IMG/VR virus record: IMGVR_UViG_3300017909_004107
Span: 56,974 to 120,973 of that record
Source of the DNA: a virus
Taxonomy: Duplodnaviria; Caudoviricetes
DNA: 64,000 nucleotides
Reading direction: 5' to 3' (one strand)
Below are positions 888-48,866 of the stretch, one piece after another. The notes below the pieces were generated by a model. That model had not been told where the DNA came from. It saw nothing but the letters and a program-made list of their open reading frames with translations, and ran no database searches. How positions within the stretch are numbered: the stretch's first letter is position 1; each line of letters opens with the position of its first letter. The translations under genes were made by a program, and so were the position numbers.

Positions 888-964
888 CATTTGATACCAA
901 ACTGCTCCCTCCAGAATCGCCTGTAAGGTGCCTGTTTTTATCTTTAGGTATGATAGTAACCCCC

Positions 965-1807: not shown

Positions 1808-1836
1808 ATTCTATTTGTAAAGTACATTATATTATA

Positions 1837-2676
1837 TCACAATGATTCTTCTTTGTCAAGGAAGAAATCAGAATCATTTATTGCTCTATCGTCCACATAT
1901 ATTTTTGCTCTAGGTTTTCCAAAGAATAACCTAGTGTATTTTAGACCCCACTCTTTGAGTTGCTTTTCGGTTCGTGACCTGACATGATAGTCTGCTTCTC
2001 TTTGTTGAGCAAGTATATCATGAGGGTATCGAGTACTACTATGAATGAACCCTCTTGCTGTCATAAGGTATATTGTAGCACCTTCGTCAAAAAGTTTATT
2101 CACCTTCTCTATCCTGCTTGGTATGGGTATTGCTTCAAATGGAGTTCCATCATGAGGTTCAGTCAGAGTTCCATCTATATCAATACAATATACATTATCT
2201 CTAACACTCACATCTATATTATTCTGAACGATCTTAGGAAGAGTTGGTAAACTGACACCTGTTTGTTGCATCAGCATGTACATTGCATACAACGATCTAC
2301 ATTCAAATTCGTGATAATATGTTGATTCTATTCTTACTGTTGGTATTATATCGTGATAATCAGGAGCAAATAGTATTACGTTATCAAGATTTACTAACTG
2401 TCGGGTAAGTGGACTCTCAACTCTACATGTGATAGCAATAATCAAATCAGCACCACCTCGTGCATAATCTAACCATTTTGATTTCCAGTCTCCGTCTCCA
2501 CCTAAAGCAGTCAGATTGACTGAATCAGGAGCAAAACAAAACTTTCCTGTATGACGATACATGTCACTTGCCATGTGTTGAGCAATGGCAAGATTTCCTC
2601 CTGTACCAATAAGAGCAATACTTCGTGCTTTTTTGAATTTAGATAATATTTTACTCTCAATGAGAAGATTCATCAT
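1837..2676 (-). CDS. SIS sugar isomerase (GmhA-like) fused to HAD phosphatase
   Basis: N-terminal GTGGNLAIAQHMASD resembles GmhA GNGGSAADAQHFAAE; C-terminal HAD motifs DIDGTL, TAR, GKP, YVDD. Confidence 0.72.
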   Translation of the reverse strand: MMNLLIESKILSKFKKARSIALIGTGGNLAIAQHMASDMYRHTGKFCFAPDSVNLTALGGDGDWKSKWLDYARGGADLIIAITCRVESPLTRQLVNLDNVILFAPDYHDIIPTVRIESTYYHEFECRSLYAMYMLMQQTGVSLPTLPKIVQNNIDVSVRDNVYCIDIDGTLTEPHDGTPFEAIPIPSRIEKVNKLFDEGATIYLMTARGFIHSSTRYPHDILAQQREADYHVRSRTEKQLKEWGLKYTRLFFGKPRAKIYVDDRAINDSDFFLDKEESL

Positions 2677-3374
2677 AGTTTAGACTCTACCTCCTGTATG
2701 TGGTGTGGACGATCAACTGATCTTATTTTACCACAATTTAGGTCGTATGGTACAACATTATATTTGCCACAGAACCCAATAGTATCTAGACCTTTCCAAT
2801 ATTTGACAATACCCATATCACAATTAGGAAAGTCACGAATTACATTTATTTTATACAGATAAAAACCTAACTGAACAATAATATTATCGCACACTATTTC
2901 ACATTTTCTCATCATATTCGTTATTACACCATTATTGCATATCATTTTTACTACATCTTCGTCTTGTATATCGCTTTGTTCTAACTGTCTCATTGGTTGC
3001 ACCATATCACACTGATGCCTGACACCAAACTTTATTACCTGATCTAACCAGTCAGGTTGAGTTAGCGGTTCGTCTCCCTGCAAATTAAGAATGTAATCAC
3101 TTTCCACATTTTGAGATACCTCTGCAACTCTATGAGTGCAAGTGTAGTGTTTTCCTGTAAGTCTGGATTCATAACCCTCCTTTTTGCAAAGATCGACAAT
3201 TTCGTGATCTTCGGTAGCAACAATAACATTGTCAATATATTTAGACTTTCGTGCAATGTCGGCAACCCTGAGAACCATTGCTCTATCGTGTATGAGAGCA
3301 AGTGGTTTTCGTGGAAACCTAGATGACGACAGTCTAGCAGGGATTACACATGTAATCTTCTGACCTAGATACAT
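2673..3374 (-). CDS. kdsB: CMP-KDO synthetase-like cytidylyltransferase
   Basis: VIPARLSSSRFPRKPL, VATED, THRVAEV, NLQGDEPL, SVD; ATG at 3374 preferred to TTG at 3413. Confidence 0.85.
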   Translation of the reverse strand: MYLGQKITCVIPARLSSSRFPRKPLALIHDRAMVLRVADIARKSKYIDNVIVATEDHEIVDLCKKEGYESRLTGKHYTCTHRVAEVSQNVESDYILNLQGDEPLTQPDWLDQVIKFGVRHQCDMVQPMRQLEQSDIQDEDVVKMICNNGVITNMMRKCEIVCDNIIVQLGFYLYKINVIRDFPNCDMGIVKYWKGLDTIGFCGKYNVVPYDLNCGKIRSVDRPHHIQEVESKL

Positions 3375-3455
3375 AATTTTTCTCTTGTATAGATATGATA
3401 ACAGTGGTTGCAAAATATTGCAACGTGGAATATTATATAGAATTACAGTTTATCT

Positions 3456-3731
3456 ATGAGAAGAATCAATTTAGGAGACATTGTAACGTCAGGAAACGAT
3501 ACTGGCGAGGTCTGTTTTGTTTCTACTCATTATTTTTGTATGTGTGTTAGAATGGGGGAGATCGCATTGAATGATGTAAAAATAGTTGTATCCAGAACAA
3601 TAGACAACTTTGAGATTATACGCAAGGTGGAGAGTGACAGTTTAGAAAGTGTCACAAAAGAAATTGAAAAGAAATACATGTACAATAGAGTTAGATCAAA
3701 TCAAAAATGGAGAGTTCCTTATGTTATCTGA
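3456..3731 (+). CDS. hypothetical protein
   Basis: 91-aa ORF; first gene of the + strand block. Confidence 0.55.
   Translation: MRRINLGDIVTSGNDTGEVCFVSTHYFCMCVRMGEIALNDVKIVVSRTIDNFEIIRKVESDSLESVTKEIEKKYMYNRVRSNQKWRVPYVI
3634..3691 (+). promoter_or_regulatory. palindrome-type early promoter (weak -10)
   Basis: GTGACAGT-TTAGAA-AGTGTCAC (3634-3655); TACAAT 3681 or TAGAGT 3686 (30 nt downstream). Confidence 0.55.
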
Positions 3732-3894
3732 GAACGAGTACAATCTCATTTGTTATTGTTTAGAACATCAACTATATGAGTTCACACCTGAAGAGAGAAA
3801 TGATGCTAATAATATAGTAGTCAAATTATCAGAGCATGTGACACTTGACAAACTGGCACATAGGCACGAGCGTAGAGATTTAGACACACTATAA
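3721..3894 (+). CDS. small hypothetical protein
   Basis: ATG 3721 with GGAGAG SD-like sequence at 3709. Confidence 0.55.
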   Translation: MLSENEYNLICYCLEHQLYEFTPEERNDANNIVVKLSEHVTLDKLAHRHERRDLDTL

Positions 3895-3895
3895 T
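3838..3895 (+). promoter_or_regulatory. palindrome-type early promoter
   Basis: GTGACACT-TGACAA-ACTGGCAC (3838-3859), 30 nt, TATAAT 3890-3895; ATG 3917. Confidence 0.75.
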
Positions 3896-3916
3896 GATAG
3901 TATAACAACAAAGATT

Positions 3917-6172
3917 ATGACAGTATCAATCGAAATCAAAGGTAATCTTGCTAAACTTCTAGCAACTGAAGACCTTATCATAGAGCATAAACCAGTCGAG
4001 ACAGCATCATTTGATGTTGACAGAAGAGTACTTACTCTACCTGTATGGGATAGAGCAAGTGAGACTGTTTACGATATGCTAGTGGCACATGAGGTGGGTC
4101 ATGCCCTATACACACCTAATAGAGAGTGGTTCTTAGAACCAGAGTGGAAAACAATACCAAAGGATTATGTCAATGTGGTTGAAGATGCTCGCATTGAAAG
4201 ACTTATCAAGCAAAGATACAGAGGTCTCAACAGAGATTTCAAAAATGGATACAATGAATTACATAATGATGATCTATTTGAATTATCAGATCAGAATGTA
4301 AATCATTTGAAACCTATTGACAAAATCAATCTATACTTCAAGATCGGTGGTTACATTGACATTGAGTTCAATGACACTGAGAATGAGTTTGTGACCAGAA
4401 TATCTAAATGTCAAACATTTGACGAGGTACTTGTTATATCTAAAGAGATACATGAGTACACTAAAGAAATGCAAGAGCAAATGCAGAAGCAAGCAAATGC
4501 CGAGCAAAAAGAGTCCGAAGCACAAGATAATGGCAAAGTCGAGTCCAGACCTGACATGTCAAAATCTAATGATGATACTCAAGCACAAAAAGATGAGCAA
4601 AAAACTGATACTCAAGGAGAACCAGAAGAAGAACCAGTACAAAGTAGATCAGACAAATCATTTCCTGATGAAGTAGATGATACTGAACAGGAACAGAAAC
4701 AGGAAGAGATACAGAATTCTGGGGATACTCAAGGTGGAGAGTTCGGAGACATCAATACTGCTACAACTCAGAGATCACTTGATGAGAGTATTGAAGACTT
4801 GACCAACACATATAAAGATCAAGTGCCTACACAATATGTTACTATCCCGAACATGGTTTTGGATAAAGTTGTTGTTGATTTCAATACTATCAAGACATAT
4901 CTTGATGAACATTTTGTCAAGGAAAATACTACTGACTCATCAAATCAATTCTTGATCGAGCATACAAGAAGATTCAATGATTTCAAGAAGTCCAGTAACA
5001 AAGAAGTCAACTATCTTGTCAAAGAGTTTGAAATGAAAAAATCAGCAGACTCATATTCTAGACAGGCAACAGCAAAGACTGGTATGCTTGACACATCTAA
5101 ATTGCACACATATATGTACAATGAAGATATATTCAGAAAGGTAACAACAATACCTGACGGAAAGAATCATGGTCTTATATTTGTTCTGGACTGGTCAGGT
5201 TCAATGAACAGTATACTTGAAGATACTCTCAAGCAATTATTTCAATTAGTCTGGTTCTGTAAAAAGACTCAAATCCCTTACGAGGTCTACGCTTTTACAA
5301 ATGATTCATGGCAATTAGGTAAGAGTGATGATAATGCTGACCAACCACATTCATCATACAGAAGTGCATCACAGGAAATTCTGGTTGATAAGTGGAAAGA
5401 GGGAGACATCAATATTGATGGGTATTTCCGTATGGTAAACATATTATCATCTAAGGCAAGAACCAAAGATATTGAAAAGCAAATGCTAAACTTGTGGTTG
5501 ACAAACTGTAGTTTCAAGTATCACTACAATCATCATTTCCCACACCCTGCTAAGTTTCATCTATCAGGCACACCATTGAATGAAGCAATCATTTGTACTA
5601 AACAATTAGTCAAGCAAATGATGAAGAAAATCCAGAAGGTACACGTTGTTATCCTGACTGATGGAGAAGCACATCAACCTAGTTACAATGTTGACAGATC
5701 AAAATTACATGATGGTTATGGTCTAGATCATAAGGGTACAAGATCAATCAATTCAACTTGTATGTTGAGAAATCGTAAGTCAGGAAAGACTTACGGATTG
5801 ACCTATAGTAATTGTTCATTGAAACTCATTGAGTGCATCAAGGACGATCTACCTAATGTCTCATTCATTGCTTTCAGAGTGGTTGAGAGGGGTGGTATGA
5901 GATATGTCTGGACTCAGTATGGTATGGAGACATATCCTGATTACGAGGTCATGAAAGAGCAAATCAAGAAAGGCAATCTTTCACTCACATTGAACTCATA
6001 CGATAAATTCTTTATGATACCACAGCATCATCTAAGTGTGGACTCAGATCAACTAGAACAAGTTGAAGAGGGTGCATCTAAGGGAGAAGTCTCAAAGGCA
6101 TTTCGTAAGATGTTCAAAAACAAAAAGACTAACAAGTTTATGCTCTCAGAGTTTGCGAAAGCAATCGCATAA
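3917..6172 (+). CDS. CobT-like protein: N-terminal HExxH metallopeptidase-like domain, acidic linker, C-terminal VWA domain
   Basis: HEVGHALYT...NVVEDARIE; D/E/Q-rich linker; MIDAS DWSGS, GTPL, LTDGE; directly upstream of a MoxR AAA+ gene. Confidence 0.8.
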   Translation: MTVSIEIKGNLAKLLATEDLIIEHKPVETASFDVDRRVLTLPVWDRASETVYDMLVAHEVGHALYTPNREWFLEPEWKTIPKDYVNVVEDARIERLIKQRYRGLNRDFKNGYNELHNDDLFELSDQNVNHLKPIDKINLYFKIGGYIDIEFNDTENEFVTRISKCQTFDEVLVISKEIHEYTKEMQEQMQKQANAEQKESEAQDNGKVESRPDMSKSNDDTQAQKDEQKTDTQGEPEEEPVQSRSDKSFPDEVDDTEQEQKQEEIQNSGDTQGGEFGDINTATTQRSLDESIEDLTNTYKDQVPTQYVTIPNMVLDKVVVDFNTIKTYLDEHFVKENTTDSSNQFLIEHTRRFNDFKKSSNKEVNYLVKEFEMKKSADSYSRQATAKTGMLDTSKLHTYMYNEDIFRKVTTIPDGKNHGLIFVLDWSGSMNSILEDTLKQLFQLVWFCKKTQIPYEVYAFTNDSWQLGKSDDNADQPHSSYRSASQEILVDKWKEGDINIDGYFRMVNILSSKARTKDIEKQMLNLWLTNCSFKYHYNHHFPHPAKFHLSGTPLNEAIICTKQLVKQMMKKIQKVHVVILTDGEAHQPSYNVDRSKLHDGYGLDHKGTRSINSTCMLRNRKSGKTYGLTYSNCSLKLIECIKDDLPNVSFIAFRVVERGGMRYVWTQYGMETYPDYEVMKEQIKKGNLSLTLNSYDKFFMIPQHHLSVDSDQLEQVEEGASKGEVSKAFRKMFKNKKTNKFMLSEFAKAIA

Positions 6173-6229
6173 ACCAATCATCAAAGTGGCACATTGCTTA
6201 TTGCATTGCCACTTTGCCCCAATTACAAT
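6171..6229 (+). promoter_or_regulatory. palindrome-type early promoter with stem-loop
   Basis: AAACCAAT-N6-AGTGGCAC; TTGCAT(6201)-17-TACAAT(6224); inverted repeat CAAAGTGGCA/TGCCACTTTG; CAATCAATCA leader. Confidence 0.75.
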
Positions 6230-6252
6230 AAACACATAAGCAATCAATCATT

Positions 6253-7383
6253 ATGCCAAGAACAATCAACTTTGAACCACACTTTGATGCAATCACTTCT
6301 AAGTATGGTCAGGAACTAGATGCTGATATGGTCAAGGAGTATGTTGCAAACAATCCTGACGTATCCTATCAGACTGTCACTAAGTACCTAAACAAATGGA
6401 AAATATCTAGAGGTAAGTGGAATATCAAGACACCACAACAAGAGACTCAGATACCAACTGCTACATTCCAAGTACAGCAACCACAATCAACTAAACTCAC
6501 AAAGACTGAGAAAGTTGAACAGAATCTTATCCCTGCAAAGGATAACACATTCATTCCTTTTGGCAACTTCCCTGCACTCAAGAAAGTAATCGCATCTAGG
6601 GAGTTCTATCCTACATTCATCACTGGTATGAGTGGCAATGGTAAGACATTCGGTGTTGAGCAAGCATGCTCTCAGTTGAACAGAGAACTTATCAGAGTCA
6701 ACATTACAGTCGAGACTGACGAGGACGATTTGATCGGTGGTTTCAGACTTGTCAATGGTCAAACAGTATGGCACAATGGTGCTGTTGTTGAAGCGTTAGA
6801 GCGTGGTGCAATCTTATTACTTGATGAGATCGATCTAGCATCAAACAAGATACTATGCTTACAACCCATACTAGAGGGCAAAGGTCTGTTTCTCAAGAAG
6901 ATTGGCGAGTACATCAAACCTGCTAAAGGATTCAATGTCATTGCTACTGCTAACACAAAGGGTAAGGGTTCTGATGATGGTCGTTTCATAGGTACTAACA
7001 TACTCAATGAAGCGTTCCTTGAGAGATTCCCTATCACATTCGAGCAAGAGTATCCTACAGTCGTGACTGAGAAAAAGATACTTACAAGATTATGTGAAGA
7101 GATCGGCATACCACTTACAGGAGATCACAAAGGATTCATTGACTACCTATGTGACTGGAGTGATATTGTAAGACGTACATTCAAAGACGGTGGTGTTGAT
7201 GAAATCATATCCACTCGTAGACTCGTTCACATCATGAGAGCATATCAAATCTTCGGCGATAAAGTCAAAGCAATGCAAATGTGTCTCAACAGATTTGATG
7301 ACGAGACTAAAGAGTCATTCATGCAACTCTATACTAAACTAGACGAGCATATCAAGTCAGAAGAGAATGTTACCGAGTCGTAA
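6253..7383 (+). CDS. cobS: CobS-like MoxR AAA+ ATPase
   Basis: Walker A GMSGNGKT, EDDLIGG, Walker B LLLDEID, ATANTKG, EAFLERF, STRRL. Confidence 0.9.
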   Translation: MPRTINFEPHFDAITSKYGQELDADMVKEYVANNPDVSYQTVTKYLNKWKISRGKWNIKTPQQETQIPTATFQVQQPQSTKLTKTEKVEQNLIPAKDNTFIPFGNFPALKKVIASREFYPTFITGMSGNGKTFGVEQACSQLNRELIRVNITVETDEDDLIGGFRLVNGQTVWHNGAVVEALERGAILLLDEIDLASNKILCLQPILEGKGLFLKKIGEYIKPAKGFNVIATANTKGKGSDDGRFIGTNILNEAFLERFPITFEQEYPTVVTEKKILTRLCEEIGIPLTGDHKGFIDYLCDWSDIVRRTFKDGGVDEIISTRRLVHIMRAYQIFGDKVKAMQMCLNRFDDETKESFMQLYTKLDEHIKSEENVTES

Positions 7384-7390
7384 CATTCCC

Positions 7391-7419
7391 TTGACAGGGT
7401 AAACCAAACCTGTCATAAT
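7391..7419 (+). promoter_or_regulatory. sigma70-type early promoter with internal inverted repeat
   Basis: TTGACA-17-CATAAT; TGACAGG/CCTGTCA inverted repeat spans the spacer. Confidence 0.8.
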
Positions 7420-7424
7420 GAGTA

Positions 7425-7501
7425 TGTCAGTCAAGGTTTTGATTGATGACTGTTGACTGACAAACTCTTTCGAGTCCTGTCGTATGACCTAAAACTAGGC
7501 A
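7425..7501 (+). ncRNA. structured 5' leader or sRNA with a loop antisense to (AAUC)n early leaders
   Basis: 10-bp stem TGTCAGTCAA/TTGACTGACA at the predicted TSS, terminal loop TTGATTGAT; then ACTC/GAGT hairpin and possible pseudoknot GTC-CTGTCGTAT-GAC-CTAAAACT-AGGCA. Confidence 0.5.
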
Positions 7502-7519
7502 TTGAAAACTTACAACATT

Positions 7520-7741
7520 ATGATTATGCAAATCACAGGTTCTTCCGCTATCGCAAACGTAAACTTCAAAGACGCTAGTCTTGTTGGTATCACATTCACA
7601 TCACAAGATACTGAATATGATTTCCTTGCGAAGGATTCAAACCTTGTTCGTAATGAACTAAGTAATGCTATCTCTAAGGGAGACAGCGTTGGTAAGTTGA
7701 TCGCTTCATACAGAAGAGAAGGTCAACTAACAGAAGTGTAA
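7520..7741 (+). CDS. small protein with weak KTSC-domain resemblance
   Basis: SSAIANVNF...ITF...EYDF...DSVGKLI pattern; start 7520 or 7526. Confidence 0.55.
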   Translation: MIMQITGSSAIANVNFKDASLVGITFTSQDTEYDFLAKDSNLVRNELSNAISKGDSVGKLIASYRREGQLTEV

Positions 7742-7797
7742 TCTAGAATTACACAAAGACAATTGAATATTTTGATACTAGCATAATCTCGCAAAGC

Positions 7798-7823
7798 AAA
7801 CCCACTCACAAGGTGGGTTTTCT
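7798..7823 (+). terminator. intrinsic terminator
   Basis: AAACCCAC-tcacaag-GTGGGTTT followed by T-rich tail. Confidence 0.75.
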
Positions 7824-7824
7824 T

Positions 7825-7882
7825 ATGCCAATTTATATACTGGTACGAACTGGTTGTTATAGCATAACAATTATACTATAAT
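7825..7882 (+). promoter_or_regulatory. palindrome-type early promoter for the nuclease/MTase pair
   Basis: ATGCCAAT-TTATAT-ACTGGTAC, 30 nt, TATAAT 7877; TTGTTA at -35 (17-nt spacer); TTGTTAT/ATAACAA hairpin. Confidence 0.75.
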
Positions 7883-7904
7883 GAGTATATCAATCAAACA
7901 TACA

Positions 7905-8429
7905 ATGATTACAGCAAAAGACATTTTACAATTCAAGACACACAAAGTTTCTCTACAAGAAAGTAAGAGTTGTATCTACAATGGTAGTCCGTTTCAAATC
8001 TACAAACAAATGAGTAGTAAGAAGAAAGGGGCAAGGTTCGAGGGTATTGTACAAGAGTATTGCACAAACTTAGGATACAAAGTTACAAAACCAGATAACT
8101 CAGATCATGATAGAAAGATCAACAATATCAAGGTTGAGATCAAGGGTTCAATGTTATGGTCTAATCCACAGTTTTTCCGTTGGCAACAATTACGACCGCA
8201 TCAAGATTATGATGTTGTTATATTCCTTGCAATATTCCCACAACAAATAGAATTCTATGGGTGTACAAAACAAGATATAAAAGATCATCTTGAAATACAG
8301 GACGAGAAGGGCAACTGGATACACAACCAACATGGAGGACTCAAGGTCAACTCAGGCACATTCTTTTTGGATAGTGACGGTCTAACCATACCCACATGGT
8401 TCAAATCAATCAAAGAGGTATTACAATGA
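7905..8429 (+). CDS. putative PD-(D/E)XK endonuclease (restriction enzyme-like)
   Basis: KGARFE...DHDRKINNIKVEIKGS catalytic pattern; stop overlaps the MTase ATG; start reassigned to 7905, downstream of the promoter. Confidence 0.6.
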   Translation: MITAKDILQFKTHKVSLQESKSCIYNGSPFQIYKQMSSKKKGARFEGIVQEYCTNLGYKVTKPDNSDHDRKINNIKVEIKGSMLWSNPQFFRWQQLRPHQDYDVVIFLAIFPQQIEFYGCTKQDIKDHLEIQDEKGNWIHNQHGGLKVNSGTFFLDSDGLTIPTWFKSIKEVLQ

Positions 8430-9214
8430 AACTCAACACAATTACAAACTCAGACTGTTTGAAGTATCTAAAGAAACTACCAGACAACTCAGTTGATCTC
8501 GTATTGACTGACCCGCCATACTTCATAGGATTTGACGGTGGTAAGGGTTGGGATAGTCAATGGAAGAGTGACAGGGAGTACATTCAATGGTGTATAGAGT
8601 GGACTAAGGAGTGTGTCAGGGTACTCAAGGACGAGCGTATGCTCGTTGTATGGGGTACTCTCAAGACTGAAGCGTTCTTGCTATACAAACTAGCACTCAA
8701 TCGTATGGAAGGTATCAAACCACAGAATGAGATCATTTGGTCTTATAACTGGGGTGGTAGGTCTAAGGATAACTTTGCTCGTAAACATGAGTATGCTTGG
8801 TGCTATTCGACAGGTGATAAATTTTTATTCAACGGTGATGATGTAAGAATTGATCGTAAGATGAATACTAACATAAGAACTGGATTACAGCATACAAAGG
8901 GAACTATACCAACATGTGTATGGGAGAAGAACAATCACACAACCAGTAAGGACTATATCGGTTGGCATGCTACAACTAAGAACATTGATATACTGTCAAG
9001 AATAATCAAGGCATATACAAATGTCAATGATGTGGTTCTGGACTGTTTCATGGGTTCTGGAAGTACAGCAGTTGCAAGTATCAGGACTGGACGTAACTTC
9101 ATAGGGTGTGAAAGAGATAAAGAATACTACACAAAGGCAAAGAAACGTATTTGTGACAGTCAAAAAAGTGACACTAAAAACTTGTCTAAGGCAAGTCTAG
9201 CGTCTATACTATAG
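8426..9214 (+). CDS. beta-class N6-adenine/N4-cytosine DNA methyltransferase
   Basis: DCL...SVDLVLTDPPY before VLDCFMGSGST...FIGCE; AGAGG SD; ATGA overlap. Confidence 0.92.
   Translation: MKLNTITNSDCLKYLKKLPDNSVDLVLTDPPYFIGFDGGKGWDSQWKSDREYIQWCIEWTKECVRVLKDERMLVVWGTLKTEAFLLYKLALNRMEGIKPQNEIIWSYNWGGRSKDNFARKHEYAWCYSTGDKFLFNGDDVRIDRKMNTNIRTGLQHTKGTIPTCVWEKNNHTTSKDYIGWHATTKNIDILSRIIKAYTNVNDVVLDCFMGSGSTAVASIRTGRNFIGCERDKEYYTKAKKRICDSQKSDTKNLSKASLASIL
9153..9210 (+). promoter_or_regulatory. palindrome-type early promoter
   Basis: GTGACAGT-CAAAAA-AGTGACAC, 30 nt, TATACT 9205; TTGTCT-17 spacer. Confidence 0.75.
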
Positions 9215-9235
9215 ACATGTACAGGAGTTACACCT

Positions 9236-9376
9236 ATGAGACAATTCACAGTTTCAGCACTTCTTGAAGGATATAGGGTGGAAGAGACTGTAACAGCAGT
9301 TTCTATTCATCATGCTATCAGAATCATGAAGGCAAAGTATGGCAATTCTGCTAGAAACATTTACGTCCTAAACTAA
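9236..9376 (+). CDS. 46-aa early protein (not in ORF track)
   Basis: AGGAG SD; MRQFTVSALLEGYRVEETVTAV... Confidence 0.65.
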   Translation: MRQFTVSALLEGYRVEETVTAVSIHHAIRIMKAKYGNSARNIYVLN

Positions 9377-9384
9377 TCAATCAA

Positions 9385-9606
9385 ATGAACAGAACTAAAC
9401 AACAACTTCAGAGAGACATTCAATTCTGCAGAAATGTCTTAGGTCTTACTGACGAGCAAACCGATCAAATGATTATGGTCTGCGACAAATTGAAAATAGG
9501 TGCAGAGTATTTCTCAGAGGAATTCGTATTCGAGGGAGACGGTATTCAATCTATTATCAGACTCAATGACCCTGACTATCTCAAAATCACATGGAGACTA
9601 GAATGA
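9385..9606 (+). CDS. small early hypothetical protein
   Basis: ATCAATCAAATG start context. Confidence 0.7.
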   Translation: MNRTKQQLQRDIQFCRNVLGLTDEQTDQMIMVCDKLKIGAEYFSEEFVFEGDGIQSIIRLNDPDYLKITWRLE

Positions 9607-9794
9607 AACTAGACATCAACAAAGAGGAACAGCAAATCTTATTAGATGCTATGATGTTCTACTTCACATTCTACTATTACAATACAAAAGGTCATACAAC
9701 AGACAACCTCGTTGACCAGTATAGTGTATGGTATGAGAAACTCACTCGTCAAGAGACAAAATCAATTTTTGAAAAGGTATTTCATGGAACTTAG
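9603..9794 (+). CDS. small early hypothetical protein
   Basis: ATGA overlap with the previous gene. Confidence 0.6.
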   Translation: MKLDINKEEQQILLDAMMFYFTFYYYNTKGHTTDNLVDQYSVWYEKLTRQETKSIFEKVFHGT

Positions 9795-9805
9795 AAAAGA
9801 TAGCT

Positions 9806-9866
9806 AGGTCAATTCAAAGACTGACACACAATCGGTTGCTATTCTATTGTAACCGATTATTATAAT
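9806..9866 (+). promoter_or_regulatory. palindrome-type early promoter with stem-loop
   Basis: AGGTCAAT-TCAAAG-ACTGACAC; TATTAT 9858/TATAAT 9861; AATCGGTT/AACCGATT inverted repeat; (CAAT)3 leader. Confidence 0.7.
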
Positions 9867-9886
9867 ACTATAGCAATCAATCAATC

Positions 9887-10138
9887 ATGGCAATGACACC
9901 TCGACAATTCATGGAAGAAGTTTACGAGATAGCGTATGGCGATCAAGCATACTATCGTGGTTTCTTTCCAGAAGAAGTGCTAGAAACACTCAGAGAATTT
10001 TCAGATAATGCTCTCAAGGTCGAAGAGTTGAGTCTAGAACCCGAACAGTATGAAGACATGGATAGGCAACTCGAAGAGTCTTACCGCAGAGGATACATGG
10101 ACGGTCGTAAATTTGCATTACAGCAACAAGAATCATGA
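9887..10138 (+). CDS. small acidic early protein
   Basis: 83 aa, E/D-rich; (AATC)n leader. Confidence 0.7.
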   Translation: MAMTPRQFMEEVYEIAYGDQAYYRGFFPEEVLETLREFSDNALKVEELSLEPEQYEDMDRQLEESYRRGYMDGRKFALQQQES

Positions 10139-10326
10139 AACAGTACACTATTACAGCAATCAAAGAGTATGAATACACTAAGACAGTTTTCGCTGAAAAC
10201 CTCGTTGATGCACATGTCAAGGCATTTGAGAAACCAGAAGACCCAGAGGACGATTGGCAACTTATTACTGACCCTGACTATGATGACCACAACCCTTACA
10301 ACATTTCACTAATTGAGGAATCATGA
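10135..10326 (+). CDS. small acidic early protein
   Basis: ATGA-coupled, 63 aa. Confidence 0.65.
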   Translation: MKQYTITAIKEYEYTKTVFAENLVDAHVKAFEKPEDPEDDWQLITDPDYDDHNPYNISLIEES

Positions 10327-10475
10327 CTCTACCATTGAAAACAGTCACTTACACATTTGATGAACTACACGCTTTTAGCGAACACGTTACTTGGTGCATC
10401 ATGGAACAAGATCAACCAGTAGATGACAACCTACAATCGTTTATCGACAAAACTTTATACGATAATCAATTATGA
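10323..10475 (+). CDS. 50-aa early protein (not in ORF track)
   Basis: ATGA-coupled ORF MTLPLKTVTYTFDELHAF... Confidence 0.6.
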   Translation: MTLPLKTVTYTFDELHAFSEHVTWCIMEQDQPVDDNLQSFIDKTLYDNQL

Positions 10476-10642
10476 AAGTCTACACTCTACTATTGACAGA
10501 AGGCGAGATCAATTCGTTGAAAGATCGTCTTGAGTCAGACAACTACGTCAATTATGACAATGATCTCAAATCAGTAGTTGAAAAGATCGGGTATTTCTTT
10601 GAACCCGAAAACACTTACAATGACATTCCTGAGAGGTATTGA
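10472..10642 (+). CDS. 56-aa acidic early protein (not in ORF track)
   Basis: ATGA-coupled ORF MKVYTLLLTEGEINSLKD... Confidence 0.6.
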   Translation: MKVYTLLLTEGEINSLKDRLESDNYVNYDNDLKSVVEKIGYFFEPENTYNDIPERY

Positions 10643-10644
10643 AC

Positions 10645-10866
10645 ATGGACAAACTAACTAAAGAACAATTTGACACACTCAAAGAGTTATATGTTGAAAG
10701 ACTCGTTGATAATATGTCAACAAAAGACCTCGTGAATTATGTTATGACTGACTTATCAGAGTGGGTTGACGGTCTCGGATATACTGAAGCAATGAATGAA
10801 TTTGAGAACTACTGGCAAGAATACTTCACAGATACGATAAATGAGGTGCTAGAGGGTCAGATATAA
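10645..10866 (+). CDS. small acidic helical early protein
   Basis: GAGG SD-like sequence; LKELYVERLVDNMSTKDLVNYV. Confidence 0.7.
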   Translation: MDKLTKEQFDTLKELYVERLVDNMSTKDLVNYVMTDLSEWVDGLGYTEAMNEFENYWQEYFTDTINEVLEGQI

Positions 10867-10911
10867 AAGTGTCATCATATCGTTGACTTATAGTATCATA
10901 ACGTTTATTAT
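10854..10911 (+). promoter_or_regulatory. palindrome-type early promoter
   Basis: GGGTCAGA-TATAAA-AGTGTCAT, 30 nt, TATTAT 10906; TTGACT-17 spacer. Confidence 0.7.
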
Positions 10912-10932
10912 AAGAGTAATTCAATCAATCAC

Positions 10933-11235
10933 ATGAACTCAGGAACAGCAGAAAGAGATCTAAACCAAGAACTCAAAGATTTTATCGATTATGTTTTTTC
11001 GTTTTATGGAGACGTTGACCCTGTTTATCCTATGAGAAAAGTTATTGGAGACGCTCCACTCAATAAGAGTGATATTCTAGATGCTACCTATGACTACCTA
11101 TCAGCAATTTCTAAGAGAAATTCTGAGACTTACACATGGGGCGAGGGCGATAGTCTTGATCGTGAAAGAGTGAGAGATATTCTATTACAGAATTACGATT
11201 TCTACCTCGTTCATTTACAGCATGGTAACATTTGA
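10933..11235 (+). CDS. early hypothetical protein
   Basis: 100 aa; FIDYVFSFYG...GDSLDRERVRD; (AATC)n leader. Confidence 0.75.
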   Translation: MNSGTAERDLNQELKDFIDYVFSFYGDVDPVYPMRKVIGDAPLNKSDILDATYDYLSAISKRNSETYTWGEGDSLDRERVRDILLQNYDFYLVHLQHGNI

Positions 11236-11295
11236 TACCATAGCAGAAATTCGTTGAAATTGGTAGTTGACATACTCAAGACTACCATATAATAT
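11225..11295 (+). promoter_or_regulatory. sigma70 promoter in a stem-loop with an upstream GTA-N8-TAC site
   Basis: GTAACATTTGATAC 11225-11238; TTGACA 11267; TATAAT 11288/TAATAT 11290; TGGTAGT/ACTACCA inverted repeat. Confidence 0.7.
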
Positions 11296-11321
11296 AAAAG
11301 TAATCAATCAATCAAACAATC

Positions 11322-11537
11322 ATGGCAAAAACAAAACTAATCACAGTTGACGGATTCACACTAGATGAGCGTTACAGAGTCAGTTTACAATGGTGCGGTC
11401 ACGCTTATCCATTATGGGTTGCAACATTTTGTGATGATGAGATTCTAGGGTGGTATAAAACTGAAGATGAAGCGAAAACCGCATGCCTAGTTTATAGAAA
11501 ATCTCAAGTCAAGTCACTCAATTTTACTTGGGACTAA
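11322..11537 (+). CDS. small early hypothetical protein
   Basis: 71 aa; (AATC)n leader. Confidence 0.7.
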   Translation: MAKTKLITVDGFTLDERYRVSLQWCGHAYPLWVATFCDDEILGWYKTEDEAKTACLVYRKSQVKSLNFTWD

Positions 11538-11549
11538 TCAATTTCGATT

Positions 11550-11610
11550 ATGGTATCATTTGATACAACATTATGATACCATAACCATTATAATAGAAAC
11601 ATCAATCAAT
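11550..11610 (+). repeat. ~61-bp direct repeat, copy 1 (copy 2 at 12202-12262)
   Basis: ATGGTATCAwwTGATACAACATTATGATACCATAACCAyTATAATAGAAACATCAATCAAT; 3 mismatches between copies. Confidence 0.9.
11553..11594 (+). promoter_or_regulatory. NtcA-type promoter
   Basis: GTA-TCATTTGA-TAC, exactly 22 nt, TATAAT. Confidence 0.8.
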
Positions 11611-11619
11611 TCAAAAACT

Positions 11620-11787
11620 ATGATCCAATTAGGCATGTATGTAAATCACAAAATCCATGATGATCTCAACGGAAGTGAGGTTATATTATTGGATAGAGTG
11701 ACTAATACCGCAGTCATAAAAAACTGGTTCGACGAATTTGATTTTCAGACTATAGAAGTATTTTTATCAGATTTGGAAATGGTATAA
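11620..11787 (+). CDS. 55-aa early protein
   Basis: Start reassigned to the ATG downstream of the promoter and leader. Confidence 0.65.
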   Translation: MIQLGMYVNHKIHDDLNGSEVILLDRVTNTAVIKNWFDEFDFQTIEVFLSDLEMV

Positions 11788-11823
11788 TCTGATACAACAC
11801 AATAATACAATACCCACTATAAT
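11782..11823 (+). promoter_or_regulatory. NtcA-type promoter
   Basis: GTA-TAATCTGA-TAC, 22 nt, TATAAT 11818; AGAAAC(ATCA)5 leader. Confidence 0.8.
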
Positions 11824-11851
11824 AGAAACATCAATCAATCAATCAATCACT

Positions 11852-12193
11852 ATGGACGCTTATCAAAAAAGAATTCTCTACGCTATCAACAAAAGAGAAT
11901 CATGCAGTCTAAGAAATCACGTTACAGTATGGAACAGTTATCATACAGGCAACGAATTTACAAGTGCTATCAGAGTACAAAACAAGACAGTTGCAACTGT
12001 TCACTATAAACTTAGTCATGATGACCTATCTGTCAACATACATGGGGGAACATCAAAAGATTTTGATGATATGATGAAAAATGATAAATGGGAGATCGAA
12101 GAGTTATTTGTAAATGAGCAGGCAGTTCAACGTTGTTTAGGTACTCAGGCAAGAAGAGTTGTAAATTTCTTGAATCAGGCACTTTTTACCTAA
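11852..12193 (+). CDS. early hypothetical protein
   Basis: 113 aa. Confidence 0.75.
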   Translation: MDAYQKRILYAINKRESCSLRNHVTVWNSYHTGNEFTSAIRVQNKTVATVHYKLSHDDLSVNIHGGTSKDFDDMMKNDKWEIEELFVNEQAVQRCLGTQARRVVNFLNQALFT

Positions 12194-12204
12194 TTTCTAA
12201 AATG

Positions 12205-12246
12205 GTATCAAATGATACAACATTATGATACCATAACCACTATAAT
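12205..12246 (+). promoter_or_regulatory. NtcA-type promoter (within repeat copy 2)
   Basis: GTA-TCAAATGA-TAC, 22 nt, TATAAT 12241. Confidence 0.8.
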
Positions 12247-12269
12247 AGAAACATCAATCAATCATTATT

Positions 12270-12419
12270 ATGTTTGTAATTTACACCAGTCCAGTCAAAT
12301 TTACGACTGACGAAAATCACGCTCGCATTATTGCTGAAGATCACTTTCAGCAAACTCGCGAAATAGTTGCTATCGAAGAAATCGATACAACAAAAGAATT
12401 TTATACAACATCACTATAG
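12270..12419 (+). CDS. 49-aa early protein (not in ORF track)
   Basis: MFVIYTSPVKFTTDENHARIIAE... directly after the (AATC)n leader. Confidence 0.65.
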   Translation: MFVIYTSPVKFTTDENHARIIAEDHFQQTREIVAIEEIDTTKEFYTTSL

Positions 12420-12431
12420 GAGGTTTTTACA

Positions 12432-12611
12432 ATGTCAGTTTTACATCATGAGGGCATACTTGAAACTTGTTTTGAAGATGCTTATGAGTCTTTCAGAATC
12501 GAAAACAATTATACAATTTCAGAAATGGAAGATTTGTATATTGAGAATCAAAACCTTAGAATGAGACTAGAAGAAGTTGCTACACAGTTATTTGAGGATA
12601 AATGCCAGTAA
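12432..12611 (+). CDS. 59-aa acidic early protein (not in ORF track)
   Basis: AGGAGG SD; MSVLHHEGILETCFEDAYE...LFEDKCQ. Confidence 0.7.
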   Translation: MSVLHHEGILETCFEDAYESFRIENNYTISEMEDLYIENQNLRMRLEEVATQLFEDKCQ

Positions 12612-12796
12612 CTAACCAATTCTATAAATCATTCTCTCAAATCGGAATAGGGGATAAAGTCAAGTATCTCACAATAGATTATCAGGTTATCATGAGATTT
12701 GACACTAATGAATGTGTTGTATTACATAATGATCTAGGCAATATTTCAACCTATAACTGGGAAGAACTTGAAATAATTGACCTAATGAATGAGTAA
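12602..12796 (+). CDS. small early protein
   Basis: 64 aa; IGIGDKVKY SH3-like start. Confidence 0.6.
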   Translation: MPVTNQFYKSFSQIGIGDKVKYLTIDYQVIMRFDTNECVVLHNDLGNISTYNWEELEIIDLMNE

Positions 12797-12834
12797 CTCA
12801 TATTTTACTTGTTTAGAGAGTCGAAAGAAATTTA

Positions 12835-12862
12835 TTGACATTCGACTCTTATCCACTATAAT
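12835..12862 (+). promoter_or_regulatory. sigma70 promoter in a stem-loop
   Basis: TTGACA-16-TATAAT; AGAGTCGAA/TTCGACTCT flanks the -35. Confidence 0.8.
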
Positions 12863-12887
12863 GTAAGTAAATCAATCAATCACTCAA

Positions 12888-13100
12888 ATGTTCACAAAAA
12901 CAACTAAGTCTCAAGCGATCGAACAATTCAAGTATAATTGGAAGGTTTACACGCTAAGATGCAAACGTGAAGGTTTACCAGTCACAAAACTAGCAAAAGT
13001 TTTTGCATGGAATGATTATACTGAATTTCTTGCAAGTGATGGATACATTACTGAATGGCAAAGAGCAAACTGGACAAATCCCTACGAATATCGAAATTAG
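12888..13100 (+). CDS. small early protein
   Basis: 70 aa; AWNDYTEFLASDGYITEWQ...WTNP. Confidence 0.75.
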   Translation: MFTKTTKSQAIEQFKYNWKVYTLRCKREGLPVTKLAKVFAWNDYTEFLASDGYITEWQRANWTNPYEYRN

Positions 13101-13141
13101 TATCGAATGATACTAGACAAACGTCCAGAATCCACTATAAT
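13100..13141 (+). promoter_or_regulatory. NtcA-type promoter
   Basis: GTA-TCGAATGA-TAC, 22 nt, TATAAT 13136; (CAAT)5 leader. Confidence 0.8.
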
Positions 13142-13172
13142 AACAGTATAGCAATCAATCAATCAATCAATC

Positions 13173-13514
13173 ATGACAACACTAAAATCAATTCTACTCG
13201 ACGCAATCAATCAAGACTTAGAATCAAGCGATTACTCTAACAATGCTATACTCGATAATACTGACTCTAAAAACTGGTCAGACTCAGATAAATTTGAATG
13301 GTGCTTCGATCGCTACATGATCGAGGTAGGTGGTTATGAAAGTCTAGAATATTGGTTTTCAGGTTTAGCACTTAGTGGAATTCCATTTACATATTATGAG
13401 ATCGGAAAGTTAGGATTCAATACTGATACATTCTTTCAAGATTTATCTGACGAATTGCAGAGAATTACAGGATACAGCGATAGAAAAGCATATAAGAGAA
13501 AGTTGAGAGCATAA
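13173..13514 (+). CDS. acidic early protein
   Basis: 113 aa. Confidence 0.75.
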   Translation: MTTLKSILLDAINQDLESSDYSNNAILDNTDSKNWSDSDKFEWCFDRYMIEVGGYESLEYWFSGLALSGIPFTYYEIGKLGFNTDTFFQDLSDELQRITGYSDRKAYKRKLRA

Positions 13515-13524
13515 AAAAAGATAT

Positions 13525-13563
13525 AGGGAACTGGTTGACAGTTCCCTTTTTTTCCCTTATAAT
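13525..13563 (+). promoter_or_regulatory. overlapping terminator-like hairpin and perfect sigma70 promoter
   Basis: AGGGAACTG-gttga-CAGTTCCCT followed by a T-run; TTGACA(13535)-17-TATAAT(13558). Confidence 0.85.
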
Positions 13564-13591
13564 AAAGTATATCAATCAATCAATCAAAAAA

Positions 13592-14047
13592 ATGGAATTC
13601 AATCTTACTGAACTTACAAACAAGTCTTATATCTGGAGTACATTTTCAAAAGTGTCTCAAGATACATCTCTCATCATGAGAATGAATTGCACACAAAAGA
13701 GTGGTAACACAGAAACAAGAGTCAGGCAAGACGGTAGTCGTATTGTAGACGTATTTCTACATGGTAACCTCATCTGTTCATACAATCCTACAAACTACGA
13801 TAATCAGAAAGTCAAATTATTCTCAGCAGGTTACTACACAAAAACAACAAAAGAACGACTCAATGCAATTTTACACTTACATACGAATGGTAAGGTTAGA
13901 ATCGTACAAGTTAGAGGTAAGTGGATAGTCAGAGATTCAAATACTGGTGCAGAGATCAATTTCTACGACGGCATGGTAGTATTTCAAAAACCTCTAACAC
14001 TAGCAGATATTGAGGAAACAAAACAATTAGAATTTATACCAGTATAG
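13592..14047 (+). CDS. early hypothetical protein
   Basis: Start reassigned after the (ATCA)4 leader; VFLHGNLI...TTKERLNAIL. Confidence 0.75.
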   Translation: MEFNLTELTNKSYIWSTFSKVSQDTSLIMRMNCTQKSGNTETRVRQDGSRIVDVFLHGNLICSYNPTNYDNQKVKLFSAGYYTKTTKERLNAILHLHTNGKVRIVQVRGKWIVRDSNTGAEINFYDGMVVFQKPLTLADIEETKQLEFIPV

Positions 14048-14049
14048 GG

Positions 14050-14078
14050 TTGACATACTCACATATAACCCTTATAAT
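14050..14078 (+). promoter_or_regulatory. perfect sigma70 promoter in a stem-loop
   Basis: TTGACA-17-TATAAT; AGGGTT/AACCCT inverted repeat. Confidence 0.85.
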
Positions 14079-14107
14079 AAAGTATATCAATCAATCACTA
14101 ATCAATC

Positions 14108-14374
14108 ATGAATTTATTTGATGCAGTTCCAGTAGTAGTCAAAGAAAGATACGACGGTTATGTAGTAGGCGATTCTATTTCAACTAAAGACTTTCAATCA
14201 ACTATGAATGAGGTTATCGACCGTTGCGAAAACTTTACAAGAGAAACACTTGACTCACAGACATACATGCAAATTAGGAGAATGGTCAGTAATGCTATCG
14301 ACCTATTGCTACATGATAGGAGGACATTCGACAGCATGATGACTGACATACTTATAGATGATTTATGGAGTTAG
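14108..14374 (+). CDS. small acidic early protein
   Basis: 88 aa; (AATC)n leader. Confidence 0.7.
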   Translation: MNLFDAVPVVVKERYDGYVVGDSISTKDFQSTMNEVIDRCENFTRETLDSQTYMQIRRMVSNAIDLLLHDRRTFDSMMTDILIDDLWS

Positions 14375-14625
14375 GAGGGCGTTACGCAAAATGAAAGAAA
14401 TATCATTATAAATCTAAAAGTGTTATTTCTTTCATTCTCTTAGCGGTCATCTTATAAAAGTCAACCAAACTTCACAAAATCCACACAATTCTCCCAGATT
14501 CGTGATTATGACAGTATCGTGTAATTTTTCGTTTATTGAATCGTCCTTACATCATCGTCCACACTTTGAGACAGTTATGCAGGATTTTGAAAAAAGCAAA
14601 TTGTTACATAATCCAAACAAAAGGG

Positions 14626-14654
14626 TTGACAGTATGACAAACACGCATTATAAT
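14626..14654 (+). promoter_or_regulatory. perfect sigma70 promoter with no downstream ORF
   Basis: TTGACA-17-TATAAT. Confidence 0.8.
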
Positions 14655-14659
14655 AAAGG

Positions 14660-14900
14660 CATGGGAAGGAGGTTTTAGTTAGCACTGGCAAACAGTTAGG
14701 ATAAACCACCCGACCAACTCACACGATACCCGAAGCGAGGGGAATCGAATCAGACAGTTATAAACAGTTCTGGGCGGTTCTCCCCGTTTTTTTATGGGGG
14801 GCGGTGCCCGTTATTAAAACAATGGGTCCTTCTAACCTACAAACGTTTCCAGACGCGAGAGTGATATCGACTTTCAGTTACATCAAATATCAAAATTTTT
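14660..14900 (+). ncRNA. candidate non-coding transcript / origin-associated RNA
   Basis: No ORF; locally GC-rich; hairpin GGGC..CTCCCC-GTTTTTTTAT-GGGGGG..GCCC at 14772-14809; boundaries approximate. Confidence 0.4.
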
Positions 14901-14913
14901 TTCGGATATAAAA

Positions 14914-15525
14914 TTACCCCACACCCCGATCATATGCATAGTGTACGTATGGACCTTGTGCATTGACATAATGAAAGAAGATCTGATGATGATATGAGTC
15001 TTTTCCTGTAAGAGGTTCTCTCCAATGATCTCTTTCACACCCTTTGTATAATACCATATCTCCATTCTTCATACTAACAGAGTTTTCTGTATGATCTGGC
15101 AGTTCAAACCATATCGGCCATGCTTCATCACGATTGGTGCTGATTTGTACTGTTGCACTGATCTCACAGGATGGTCGATCATGATGTCGAGTCAGTTCCT
15201 GTCCCTCATAGTAAAACCGGTCAAAGTAATATGTGGGCAATAAGTCCATACTCAGAATACCTTCGATCTTTTTCATTAAGGAGTAATGTGTTCTCTTATA
15301 GAATGGATGATTGTATCTTGCTAAAGAACCATTGACCTGTGGTTCGACTGAATTGAACTCTGTCTTTTGATGTCGAAAGTGTCTTTCAATTCCAGTGATT
15401 CTTTGACCCTCTTTGTCAACAGGCGGTGAGCAGTAAAGACTTTTGAAGTCAACTGCATCAGGAACATAAAGATATCCAGTCGTATCAAATTGTTTTCTTA
15501 TTTCCATCTTGGACCTACCACCCAT
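14914..15525 (-). CDS. 2OG-Fe(II) oxygenase-like protein
   Basis: LTRHHDRPSCEIS (HxD), GDMVLYKGC...HWREP, QIFFHYV. Confidence 0.75.
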   Translation of the reverse strand: MGGRSKMEIRKQFDTTGYLYVPDAVDFKSLYCSPPVDKEGQRITGIERHFRHQKTEFNSVEPQVNGSLARYNHPFYKRTHYSLMKKIEGILSMDLLPTYYFDRFYYEGQELTRHHDRPSCEISATVQISTNRDEAWPIWFELPDHTENSVSMKNGDMVLYKGCERDHWREPLTGKDSYHHQIFFHYVNAQGPYVHYAYDRGVG

Positions 15526-17303: not shown

Positions 17304-17304
17304 A

Positions 17305-18903: not shown

Positions 18904-18994
18904 GATTATAGTATACCACAATACCGCAAAAATGCAAGTATTTCAAAAAAACAGACGGTCGCTGCTGCAATAATCAAGAATTTTAGTGTTTTTA

Positions 18995-39833: not shown

Positions 39834-39859
39834 ATAACACTATCAAATTGTAGAGAAGA

Positions 39860-41398: not shown

Positions 41399-41400
41399 AG

Positions 41401-48847: not shown

Positions 48848-48866
48848 TCTTAGTATATAAGGTATA

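Follow-up and report, generated by a model that had tools for sequence, protein, structure and literature searches.

Regional avoidance of restriction sites, in which one segment of a phage genome lacks recognition words that occur elsewhere in it, had until now been recognised only in phages whose DNA is injected starting at a fixed end. Among large contractile-tailed phages, the SPO1-like Bacillus myoviruses carry a host-takeover module in their terminal redundancy, and this module is injected first. In Murciavirus and T5, sensitivity to restriction is set only by the motifs that lie in the first-injected region (PMC12455610). In this work we describe regional avoidance in T4-like cyanophages, in the form of a multi-word restriction-site desert that occupies the left part of a 64,000-nucleotide stretch of IMG/VR virus record IMGVR_UViG_3300017909_004107 (hereafter the window), covers a predicted early-gene block, and involves the sites of many enzymes, with sets of purged words that are lineage-specific. 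Our search of the literature, whose coverage was incomplete and cannot prove absence, found no published account of T4-like cyanophages with site deserts confined to one region.

The window corresponds to positions 56,974-120,973 of a 120,973-bp contig from an uncultured marine T4-like cyanophage (61% complete by CheckV), and negative window coordinates denote positions to its left. The contig was assigned to the Kyanoviridae-like T4-type cyanomyoviruses on the basis of gp14, gp15 and gp16, together with the peptidase family T4-GC 146, CobS and Kyano_Gp96. Megablast against cultured phages returned no near relative, and identity to cultured members of the group is 37-64%. The phage is common in marine metagenomes, where it was found in 12 studies.

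A multi-word desert in duplex DNA

Counts of all words of 4-6 nucleotides inside the block were compared with those elsewhere in the genome, and 768 words were scanned along the whole contig for their largest gap. The desert is defined by the following intervals, given in window coordinates.

950-14800, both strands: multi-word restriction-site desert over two divergent, predicted early units (word counts and gap profile)
3089-14813: strictly TTAA-free interval (TTAA scan and codon shuffles)
311-18961: largest gap of GCWGC (this and the next four from the genome-wide gap scan)
-259 to 15169: largest gap of GGATG
580-11622, with the next stretch running to 15956: largest gap of GGATC
2100-8813 and 8834-15425: largest gaps of GGTGA
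-767 to 14825: largest gap of GGWCC

Some ten recognition-type words are purged from the block, and TTAA, on which a preliminary description of the window had focused, is merely one of them. Against expectations taken from the rest of the genome, the interval 950-14800 retains 3 of 38.5 TTAA sites, 1 of 18.5 CCGG, 3 of 30.1 GGTGA and 1 of 24.7 GGATC, and is free of GCWGC (21.2 expected), GGATG (18.9) and GGWCC (8.9). Together these seven words account for 8 sites where 161 would be expected, and the plus-strand unit (3456-14678) holds only 3 against 131.7. Control words (GATC, CTAG, GANTC, CATG, TCGA, GTAC, ACGT, TATA and AATT) occur at or above expectation in the block, and GC content is 0.365 both inside and outside it. 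CASTG, CATCG and CAGATG likewise have their largest gap over the block. Across all 768 words, between 13 and 22 significant gaps overlap throughout the interval from about 500 to 15500, compared with 0-1 over most of the contig and up to 6 in the block flanks. The purged words correspond to specificities of known Type II/IIS enzymes, namely MseI, HpaII, TseI/BbvI, FokI, HphI, AlwI, AvaII, TspRI, CviJI, HhaI and EcoRII.

Asymmetric words are scarce on the sense strand in both of their orientations, with 0-2 sites left in each. GGATG and CATCC are both absent (9.2 and 3.7 expected), as are GCAGC and GCTGC (6.3 and 9.2 expected), and GGTGA/TCACC and GGATC/GATCC are depleted whichever way they are read (again 0-2 sites left). 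Because these words are missing in both orientations, selection acts on duplex DNA and not on RNA. An even, genome-wide depletion describes GCGC (1 site), RGCY and CCWGG (0 sites), which this genome avoids throughout, and fails to describe the seven block-limited words.

The TTAA gap itself is extreme. In the left part of the window TTAA occurs at 259, 1230, 1789, 3085, 14814, 15276 and 15904, and the 11,729 bp between 3085 and 14814 form the largest TTAA gap of the contig, approximately five times the size of the runner-up (2,334 bp). The preliminary description had placed consecutive sites at 3085 and 14814 with nothing between them, which the computed scan bears out, and it had located the flanking sites correctly with the exception of one put at 15277 that lies at 15276. 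It had also noted well over 100 TAA trinucleotides in the interval, none following a T, and an absence of CCGG; both observations hold, since 3089-14813 contains 202 TAA with none preceded by T, as well as 217 TTA with none trailed by A, and the CCGG gap extends from 1126 to 15217. At codon junctions, a TTA codon is followed by a codon beginning with A in 0 of 55 cases inside the interval compared with 13% elsewhere, and an NTT codon is followed by AAN in 0 of 269 cases compared with 5% elsewhere. Base composition predicts 114 TTAA sites in 3089-14813 (the earlier rough estimate was on the order of 100), a second-order Markov model predicts 48, and the TTAA rate of the remaining genome predicts 33; none is observed.

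Codon usage was ruled out as the cause of the gap, as neither shuffling nor resampling of codons reproduces a count of zero. Permuting synonymous codons inside genes (1000 replicates) gave 53.0±5.2 TTAA sites, shuffling codon order gave 60±7, and resampling the codon usage of the genome gave 75±6. The codon-shuffled control had been named at the outset as a result that could overturn the depletion; the lowest synonymous replicate still had 36 sites. Low sequence complexity was similarly rejected, the block containing 1642 distinct canonical 6-mers compared with a median of 1731.

Several side observations concern these same words. CCGG is absent or nearly so from the whole genome of almost every marine cyanomyovirus examined (0 of 249 expected in S-PM2, 0 in P-RSM4, 1 in S-ShM2 and 0 in P-HM2), in a survey that covered the present contig, these four phages and contigs L004, L005 and L009. 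GCGC is scarce too in most of the marine cyanomyoviruses examined. Such uniform avoidance of CCGG across hosts suggests a shared agent, possibly one encoded by phages. CATCG/CGATG is purged from -1430 to 14553 of the window and also from 37586 to 55855 in P-RSM4, and we know of no enzyme of this specificity. The only other peak of the gap profile, at 50-55.5 kb, is an A-poor compositional island different in nature from the restriction desert; it holds (50000-55500) the largest gaps of AAAA, ATAA, TATAA and CATA, and kindred repeats are present in contigs G001-G003.

The predicted early-gene block and its relatives

The desert extends over two divergent transcription units with the following features.

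965-3413, minus strand: sugar-nucleotide operon (Pfam), the leaky left part of the desert
965-1807, minus strand: UDP-glucose/GDP-mannose dehydrogenase-like gene (Pfam)
1837-2676, minus strand: SIS-like gene (Pfam)
2673-3413, minus strand: cytidylyltransferase gene (Pfam)
1859-1831, minus strand: perfect promoter TTGACA-17-TATAAT (consensus scan)
3456-14678, plus strand: predicted early unit of about 25 genes (open reading frame, ORF, calls)
3917-6172, plus strand: conserved cyanomyovirus 'peptidase', T4-GC 146 (tblastn, 463 phage records)
6253-7383, plus strand: CobS-like AAA_5 ATPase (Pfam PF07728)
13535-14047, plus strand: Kyano_Gp96-like gene (PF23790), the right-boundary anchor in relatives
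12835, 13535, 14050 and 14626 (cluster 12835-14654), plus strand: sigma-70 promoters, perfect TTGACA-16/17-TATAAT
13114, plus strand: sigma-70 promoter, 11/12 match (consensus scan)
14772-14789, plus strand: intrinsic terminator at the end of the plus-strand unit and the right desert edge

The edges of the desert coincide with the ends of these units, at the terminator on the right and at a convergent junction near 950 on the left. The first sites appear 25-450 bp past the terminator (TTAA at 14814, GGWCC at 14825, GGATG at 15169 and CCGG at 15217), whereas the leaky minus-strand operon retains TTAA at 1230, 1789 and 3085, CCGG at 1126 and GGTGA at 2100. The sole GGTGA sites of the plus-strand unit, at 8813 and 8834, both lie within the gene for a DNA methylase.

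RNA-seq of P-HM2 assigned its small-ORF cluster PHM2_060-074, PHM2_135 and cobS (PHM2_136) to the Early(A) class (PMC5082946, S2 Table), and the block peptidase is a homolog of PHM2_135. Judged by its promoters and by these homologs, the block is probably an early region read by the host polymerase, in keeping with the earlier proposal that the TTAA-free stretch covers an early-gene block. In typical cyanomyoviruses the peptidase-cobS pair belongs to the replication module, where gp46 and gp45 flank it in S-PM2, S-BM3 and P-HM2; in the clade of the present contig it has been relocated to the start of the early block of small ORFs (3917-7383), which indicates that the block collects genes that are early in P-HM2. 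Both genes are as site-free as the small ORFs. For the roughly 20 small ORFs of the block PHROGs returned only families of unknown function, and PADLOC had no match for five of them. A second, looser set of near-consensus sigma-70 promoters is found at contig positions 4600-19800 (window -52374 to -37157), where TTAA is somewhat sparser and no desert is seen.

Ten clade contigs from IMG/VR or GenBank, each crossing the left or the right edge of the block, were examined for the same pattern. In every contig that crosses the left edge the desert begins at the homologous point, approximately 3 kb upstream of the peptidase gene, and in every contig that crosses the right edge it ends no more than about 1-1.5 kb past the Gp96-like gene. 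The words that are purged differ. Nine of the 10 have no TTAA in the block; the exception is AG-345-D19, in which TTAA is normal (63 sites, with 90 predicted by composition). Six contigs lack GGATG in the block and the other four (G001, AG-345-D19, L046 and L047) have 8-26 sites, and GGTGA is present in the block of three. RGCY, GGWCC, CCGG and GCGC number 0-1 site per block in all of them, and avoidance of RGCY and CCWGG, genome-wide in the present contig, is limited to the block in G001 and AG-345-D19. Synteny and divergence are continuous across the desert edge in three lineages, where identities inside and outside the block are 88 versus 83-88%, 67-73 versus 69-81% and 65-73 versus 63-77%. 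Lineage-specific word sets at one and the same place, continuous divergence and equal GC content argue for continuing, graded and position-specific selection on the block as opposed to a foreign origin. As a separate observation, most clade contigs start or stop inside the block or at its edge (G001, G002, G003, AG-345-D19, L043, L044, L046, L047 and L048, including one contig from a single amplified cell), which could reflect hypervariable gene content or a physical genome end.

Deserts are also found in cultured phages, at the analogous small-ORF place. In P-RSM4 a desert at 40.7-52.4 kb covers the small-ORF and methylase region and lacks GGTGA (27 expected), GGATC (24), GGATG (11), GGWCC (8) and CATCG (13), with 3 of 26 GCWGC sites remaining and TTAA normal (78 observed, 75 expected). 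In S-ShM2 the gap concerns RGCY and extends from 34632 to 53988 (log10 P = -8.6). P-HM2, two distant T4-like contigs (L039 and L040) and the peptidase-cobS locus of S-PM2 show no desert, which rules out the desert as a general trait of small-ORF regions; in the S-PM2 ORFanage several palindromes are partly depleted. The peptidase-cobS pair of P-RSM4, situated far from its desert, is 2-fold depleted (18 sites against 37.9, P=3e-4) compared with at least 6-fold in the desert, so that in this phage location outweighs expression class.

Loss of TTAA tracks a restriction-type nuclease

The block carries two overlapping genes that bear on the loss of TTAA.

7881-8429, plus strand: PD-(D/E)xK Type II restriction-type nuclease, putative target TTAA (motif, fold and PADLOC)
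8396-9214, plus strand: beta-class DPPY N6-adenine DNA methyltransferase (PF01555), overlapping the nuclease gene

The D77...E86-x-K88 motif of the nuclease is invariant among 30 homologs, and its AlphaFold2 model (pLDDT 91) has I-Ssp6803I, NhoI, Eco15I, EcoRV and PvuII as top Foldseek matches. PADLOC classifies the nuclease as REase_II (E=4e-15) and the methylase as MTase_II (E=3e-54); an NCBIfam search of the nuclease gave no match. The methylase matches PF01555 over its full length (E=2e-49), with the DPPY motif visible in the alignment, and a search of the contig for three Pfam families detected no other DNA methylase. Its closest solved structures are M.MboIIA, M.RsrI and CcrM, enzymes with unrelated targets, and its specificity is therefore not inferable from sequence. 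The pair displays two traits of an orthodox Type II system, namely a PD-(D/E)xK core and an overlapping methylase gene with an intact catalytic motif. In a natural variant (run X3) exactly the nuclease ORF is deleted (joint 7826 to 8438) and the methylase is retained, which indicates that the nuclease is dispensable and polymorphic in the population. A methylase is adjacent in 25 of 31 nuclease-bearing loci, and the distant contig L039 has this pair as well.

The distribution of TTAA follows that of the nuclease. Among loci centred on the nuclease gene, drawn from phages that are related to one another, the median ratio of observed to expected TTAA is 0.03 in the 31 with the nuclease and 0.74 in the 17 without it (Mann-Whitney P=4e-8). 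In all six nuclease loci without an adjacent methylase the ratio is at most 0.03, whereas it reaches 0.46 in those with one. S-ShM2 (NC_015281), which has the nuclease and no adjacent methylase, contains no TTAA in 179,563 bp; S-BM3 has 18 against 307 expected; and in P-RSM4 and S-PM2, which lack the nuclease, TTAA is normal. The S-ShM2 homolog, SShM2_059, lies directly 3' of a helicase gene, and in P-RSM4 the gene directly after the same helicase is a methylase of the family (T4-GC 38) to which the methylase of the block belongs. Since TTAA loss tracks the nuclease and is relaxed where a methylase adjoins it, the pair is probably a phage-borne TTAA restriction-modification system, in which a PD-(D/E)xK Type II nuclease family carried by phages would be the TTAA cutter and the adjoining methylase its protection. 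The pair alone was rejected as the maker of the regional TTAA gap, as eleven other carriers of it keep scattered TTAA beside it.

Explanations and comparison with known systems

The preliminary description had offered three explanations for the gap: that the region must survive an MseI-like TTAA restriction until protection is expressed, that TTAA is modified in the virion and impedes host RNA polymerase, or that early mRNAs escape a UUAA-cleaving RNase. The first, once generalised, is the best supported, although TTAA is one of about ten words, the cutter is probably a phage nuclease family and not a host MseI-like enzyme, and the desert extends left to about 950. We are reasonably confident that the purging of the block results from its early exposure to nucleases while unprotected, whichever of the two routes considered below brings this about. 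In this scenario the block would be an immediate-early region transcribed by host RNA polymerase, and selection against the sites of sequence-specific double-strand endonucleases would be far stronger in it than elsewhere. A break that hits the block when the entering DNA is still present as one copy and lacks protection would end the infection, and sites outside the block would be exposed less or later. Host Type II/IIS restriction enzymes would presumably select against CCGG, GCWGC, GGATG, GGTGA, GGATC and GGWCC (and RGCY or CCWGG in relatives), and TTAA would probably be selected against by the cyanophage-carried Type II nuclease family, including the ORF at 7881-8429, with the methylase providing protection. 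If all breaks were equally lethal, selection per site would be equal, and the desert therefore requires that breaks in the block be likelier or more harmful. Furthermore, the uniformity of the desert over genes that are deleted in natural variants implies that what counts is the break itself and not which gene it disrupts.

The first route, which we favour tentatively and rate somewhat below an even chance, is that the block lies in the first-entering DNA of a genome with non-random ends. It would be situated just upstream of a pac-type packaging start, and would thus be packaged last and ejected first. This appears to be the only mechanism with an experimental precedent (PMC12455610), and it fits the uniformity of the desert over dispensable genes, the precedence of location over expression class, and the sharp right and leaky left edges. 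Weak hints of localised ends are a depth of about 1.5x just right of the block (run X2; depths here and below are contig depths) and, in S-PM2, a 2-3x read density directly downstream of the small-ORF region that has been read as terminal redundancy (PMC4503421).

A number of observations weigh against this route. The contig encodes a T4-type small terminase, gp16, with gp14 and gp15 alongside. Packaging of the T4 type proceeds by the headful and gives permuted ends. Contractile-tailed phages normally eject their DNA much faster than genes are expressed, so that the order of entry would matter only if entry were slow or stalled. No 2x depth step occurs across the block, which means that the block is not a collapsed long terminal repeat in the style of T5 or SPO1, and both of its edges are bridged by independent assemblies. 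The read-density signal of S-PM2 (NC_006820) may be a GC sequencing bias, since an island of 48-56% GC adjoins the ORFanage on its downstream side, at 20-25 kb. P-HM2 and the S-PM2 peptidase locus have no desert, and the modest depletion of the remote early pair of P-RSM4 hints at an effect of expression class. Avoidance in the early region has moreover been said not to matter for headful, permuted phages (PMC12455610). The preliminary description had itself cautioned that T4-like genomes are circularly permuted; for cyanomyoviruses, permutation was inferred from assembly closure alone (PMC1079782), and for cyanophages the caution reaches no further than that.

The second route, which we rate only slightly below the first, dispenses with a fixed entry end. 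Here the genome is permuted, and the block would be special in two respects: it alone would have to function on naked, single-copy DNA, and it would carry the genes for protection, which would be the methylase and perhaps anti-restriction proteins among the roughly 20 small ORFs. A break in the block, or exonuclease nibbling into it from a nearby break, would stop protection and allow cutting to continue, whereas sticky-end breaks elsewhere would be resealed, or prevented once the DNA is protected. Several lines of evidence agree with this: the desert ends on both sides at transcription-unit ends, the block holds the one methylase found on the contig, and TTAA is tolerated outside the block where nuclease and methylase occur together and lost everywhere where the nuclease occurs alone. 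The depletion of the remote P-RSM4 pair, the T4-type terminase, the flat depth over the block and the assemblies that bridge its edges also favour it, and in T5-like phages ligation is considered to weaken restriction that leaves sticky ends (PMC8594841). On the other hand, if any unrepaired break is lethal, selection per site is the same throughout the genome, so that efficient repair outside the block has to be assumed. Such a model also sits poorly with a desert that is uniform over apparently dispensable, naturally polymorphic genes, with the weight of location over expression class in P-RSM4, and with other nuclease-methylase carriers that keep TTAA beside these genes.

We consider it very unlikely that the desert is a fossil of another host range, left by a block imported or exchanged from phages that lack these words genome-wide. 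The small-ORF regions of T4-like phages are indeed plastic, many clade contigs break inside the block, the partly depleted ORFanage of S-PM2 is thought to be foreign, and a phage free of TTAA throughout its genome exists in S-ShM2. Nevertheless, synteny and divergence run continuously over the edge in three lineages, GC content is identical, and the conserved genes peptidase and cobS are no richer in sites than the small ORFs; the word set at this position differs from lineage to lineage, which would demand several imports that all share one pair of boundaries.

Still less credible is the proposal that TTAA in the virion is methylated by the phage methylase and hinders host RNA polymerase, causing early genes to avoid it. 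It is true that the phage has an N6-adenine methylase that probably acts on TTAA, but with a single methylase found, modification would cover one of about ten words and cannot explain a multi-word pattern that varies by lineage; moreover, other carriers of the pair have TTAA throughout the adjoining small-ORF DNA, and P-RSM4, with a homologous methylase, has normal TTAA in its desert. Escape of early mRNAs from a UUAA-cutting RNase can be dismissed, for although it could account for the TTAA gap, where a palindrome cannot separate DNA from RNA, asymmetric words are missing from the sense strand in both orientations and the minus-strand operon is covered too.

Regional avoidance in a T4-like phage contradicts its stated irrelevance for headful phages (PMC12455610). 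If our interpretation is correct, it implies either localised ends with slow or staged entry in a contractile-tailed relative of T4, or an undescribed means of surviving cuts outside the early block, and this question of cyanophage DNA delivery and protection is now approachable in the cultured phages P-RSM4 and S-ShM2. The purged word set of each uncultured lineage would be a readable fingerprint of the nucleases it has met, including a TTAA system deployed by phages, and the desert could be used to locate, by computation alone, the immediate-early or leading region in phages that have not been cultured. Taken as a record of the Type II/IIS specificities that face the phages of marine picocyanobacteria, these word sets suggest a nuclease arms race in the ocean much richer than the sparse restriction-modification content of the hosts would lead one to expect. 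In addition, the genome-wide loss of TTAA in some cyanophages is linked to a restriction-type nuclease that the phages themselves carry.

Compared with classical, genome-wide site avoidance, the same selection and the same kinds of words are involved, and GCGC, RGCY and CCWGG are avoided here in just that manner; the difference is that seven words are fully avoided only in the block and weakly or not at all outside it. Compared with MseI/Tru9I-class Type II systems, which recognise the 4-bp AT palindrome TTAA, the pair of the block is similar in that a PD-(D/E)xK nuclease gene overlaps a gene for a DPPY N6-adenine methylase, and it differs in being phage-borne within a predicted early unit and in having a TTAA specificity that is suggested by the comparative pattern alone. 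The SPO1 module resembles the block in size (about 13 kb) and in layout (roughly 25 small genes downstream of strong host-type promoters), but SPO1 escapes restriction mainly through its hydroxymethyluracil DNA, and the contig depths over the block carry no sign of a terminal repeat. The closest parallels are the first-step-transfer DNA of T5 and the leading regions of T7 and Murciavirus (PMC12455610), where a host-transcribed early segment is likewise free of sites that are present elsewhere. The restriction-site-free segment amounts to 8% of the genome in T5 and to about 7-8% here, as estimated from the 61% completeness of the 121-kb contig, and the anti-restriction functions carried by the segment in those phages may have a counterpart in the methylase of the block. 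Those phages differ in having fixed ends and stepwise or transcription-driven entry, as opposed to T4-like gp14, gp15 and gp16 homologs with no doubling of depth, and in having purged one or two words, as opposed to about ten words of 4-5 bp across two divergent units. On balance we lean towards the view that T4-like cyanophages have a defined 'vulnerable window', and that their immediate-early block behaves like the first-step-transfer DNA of T5.

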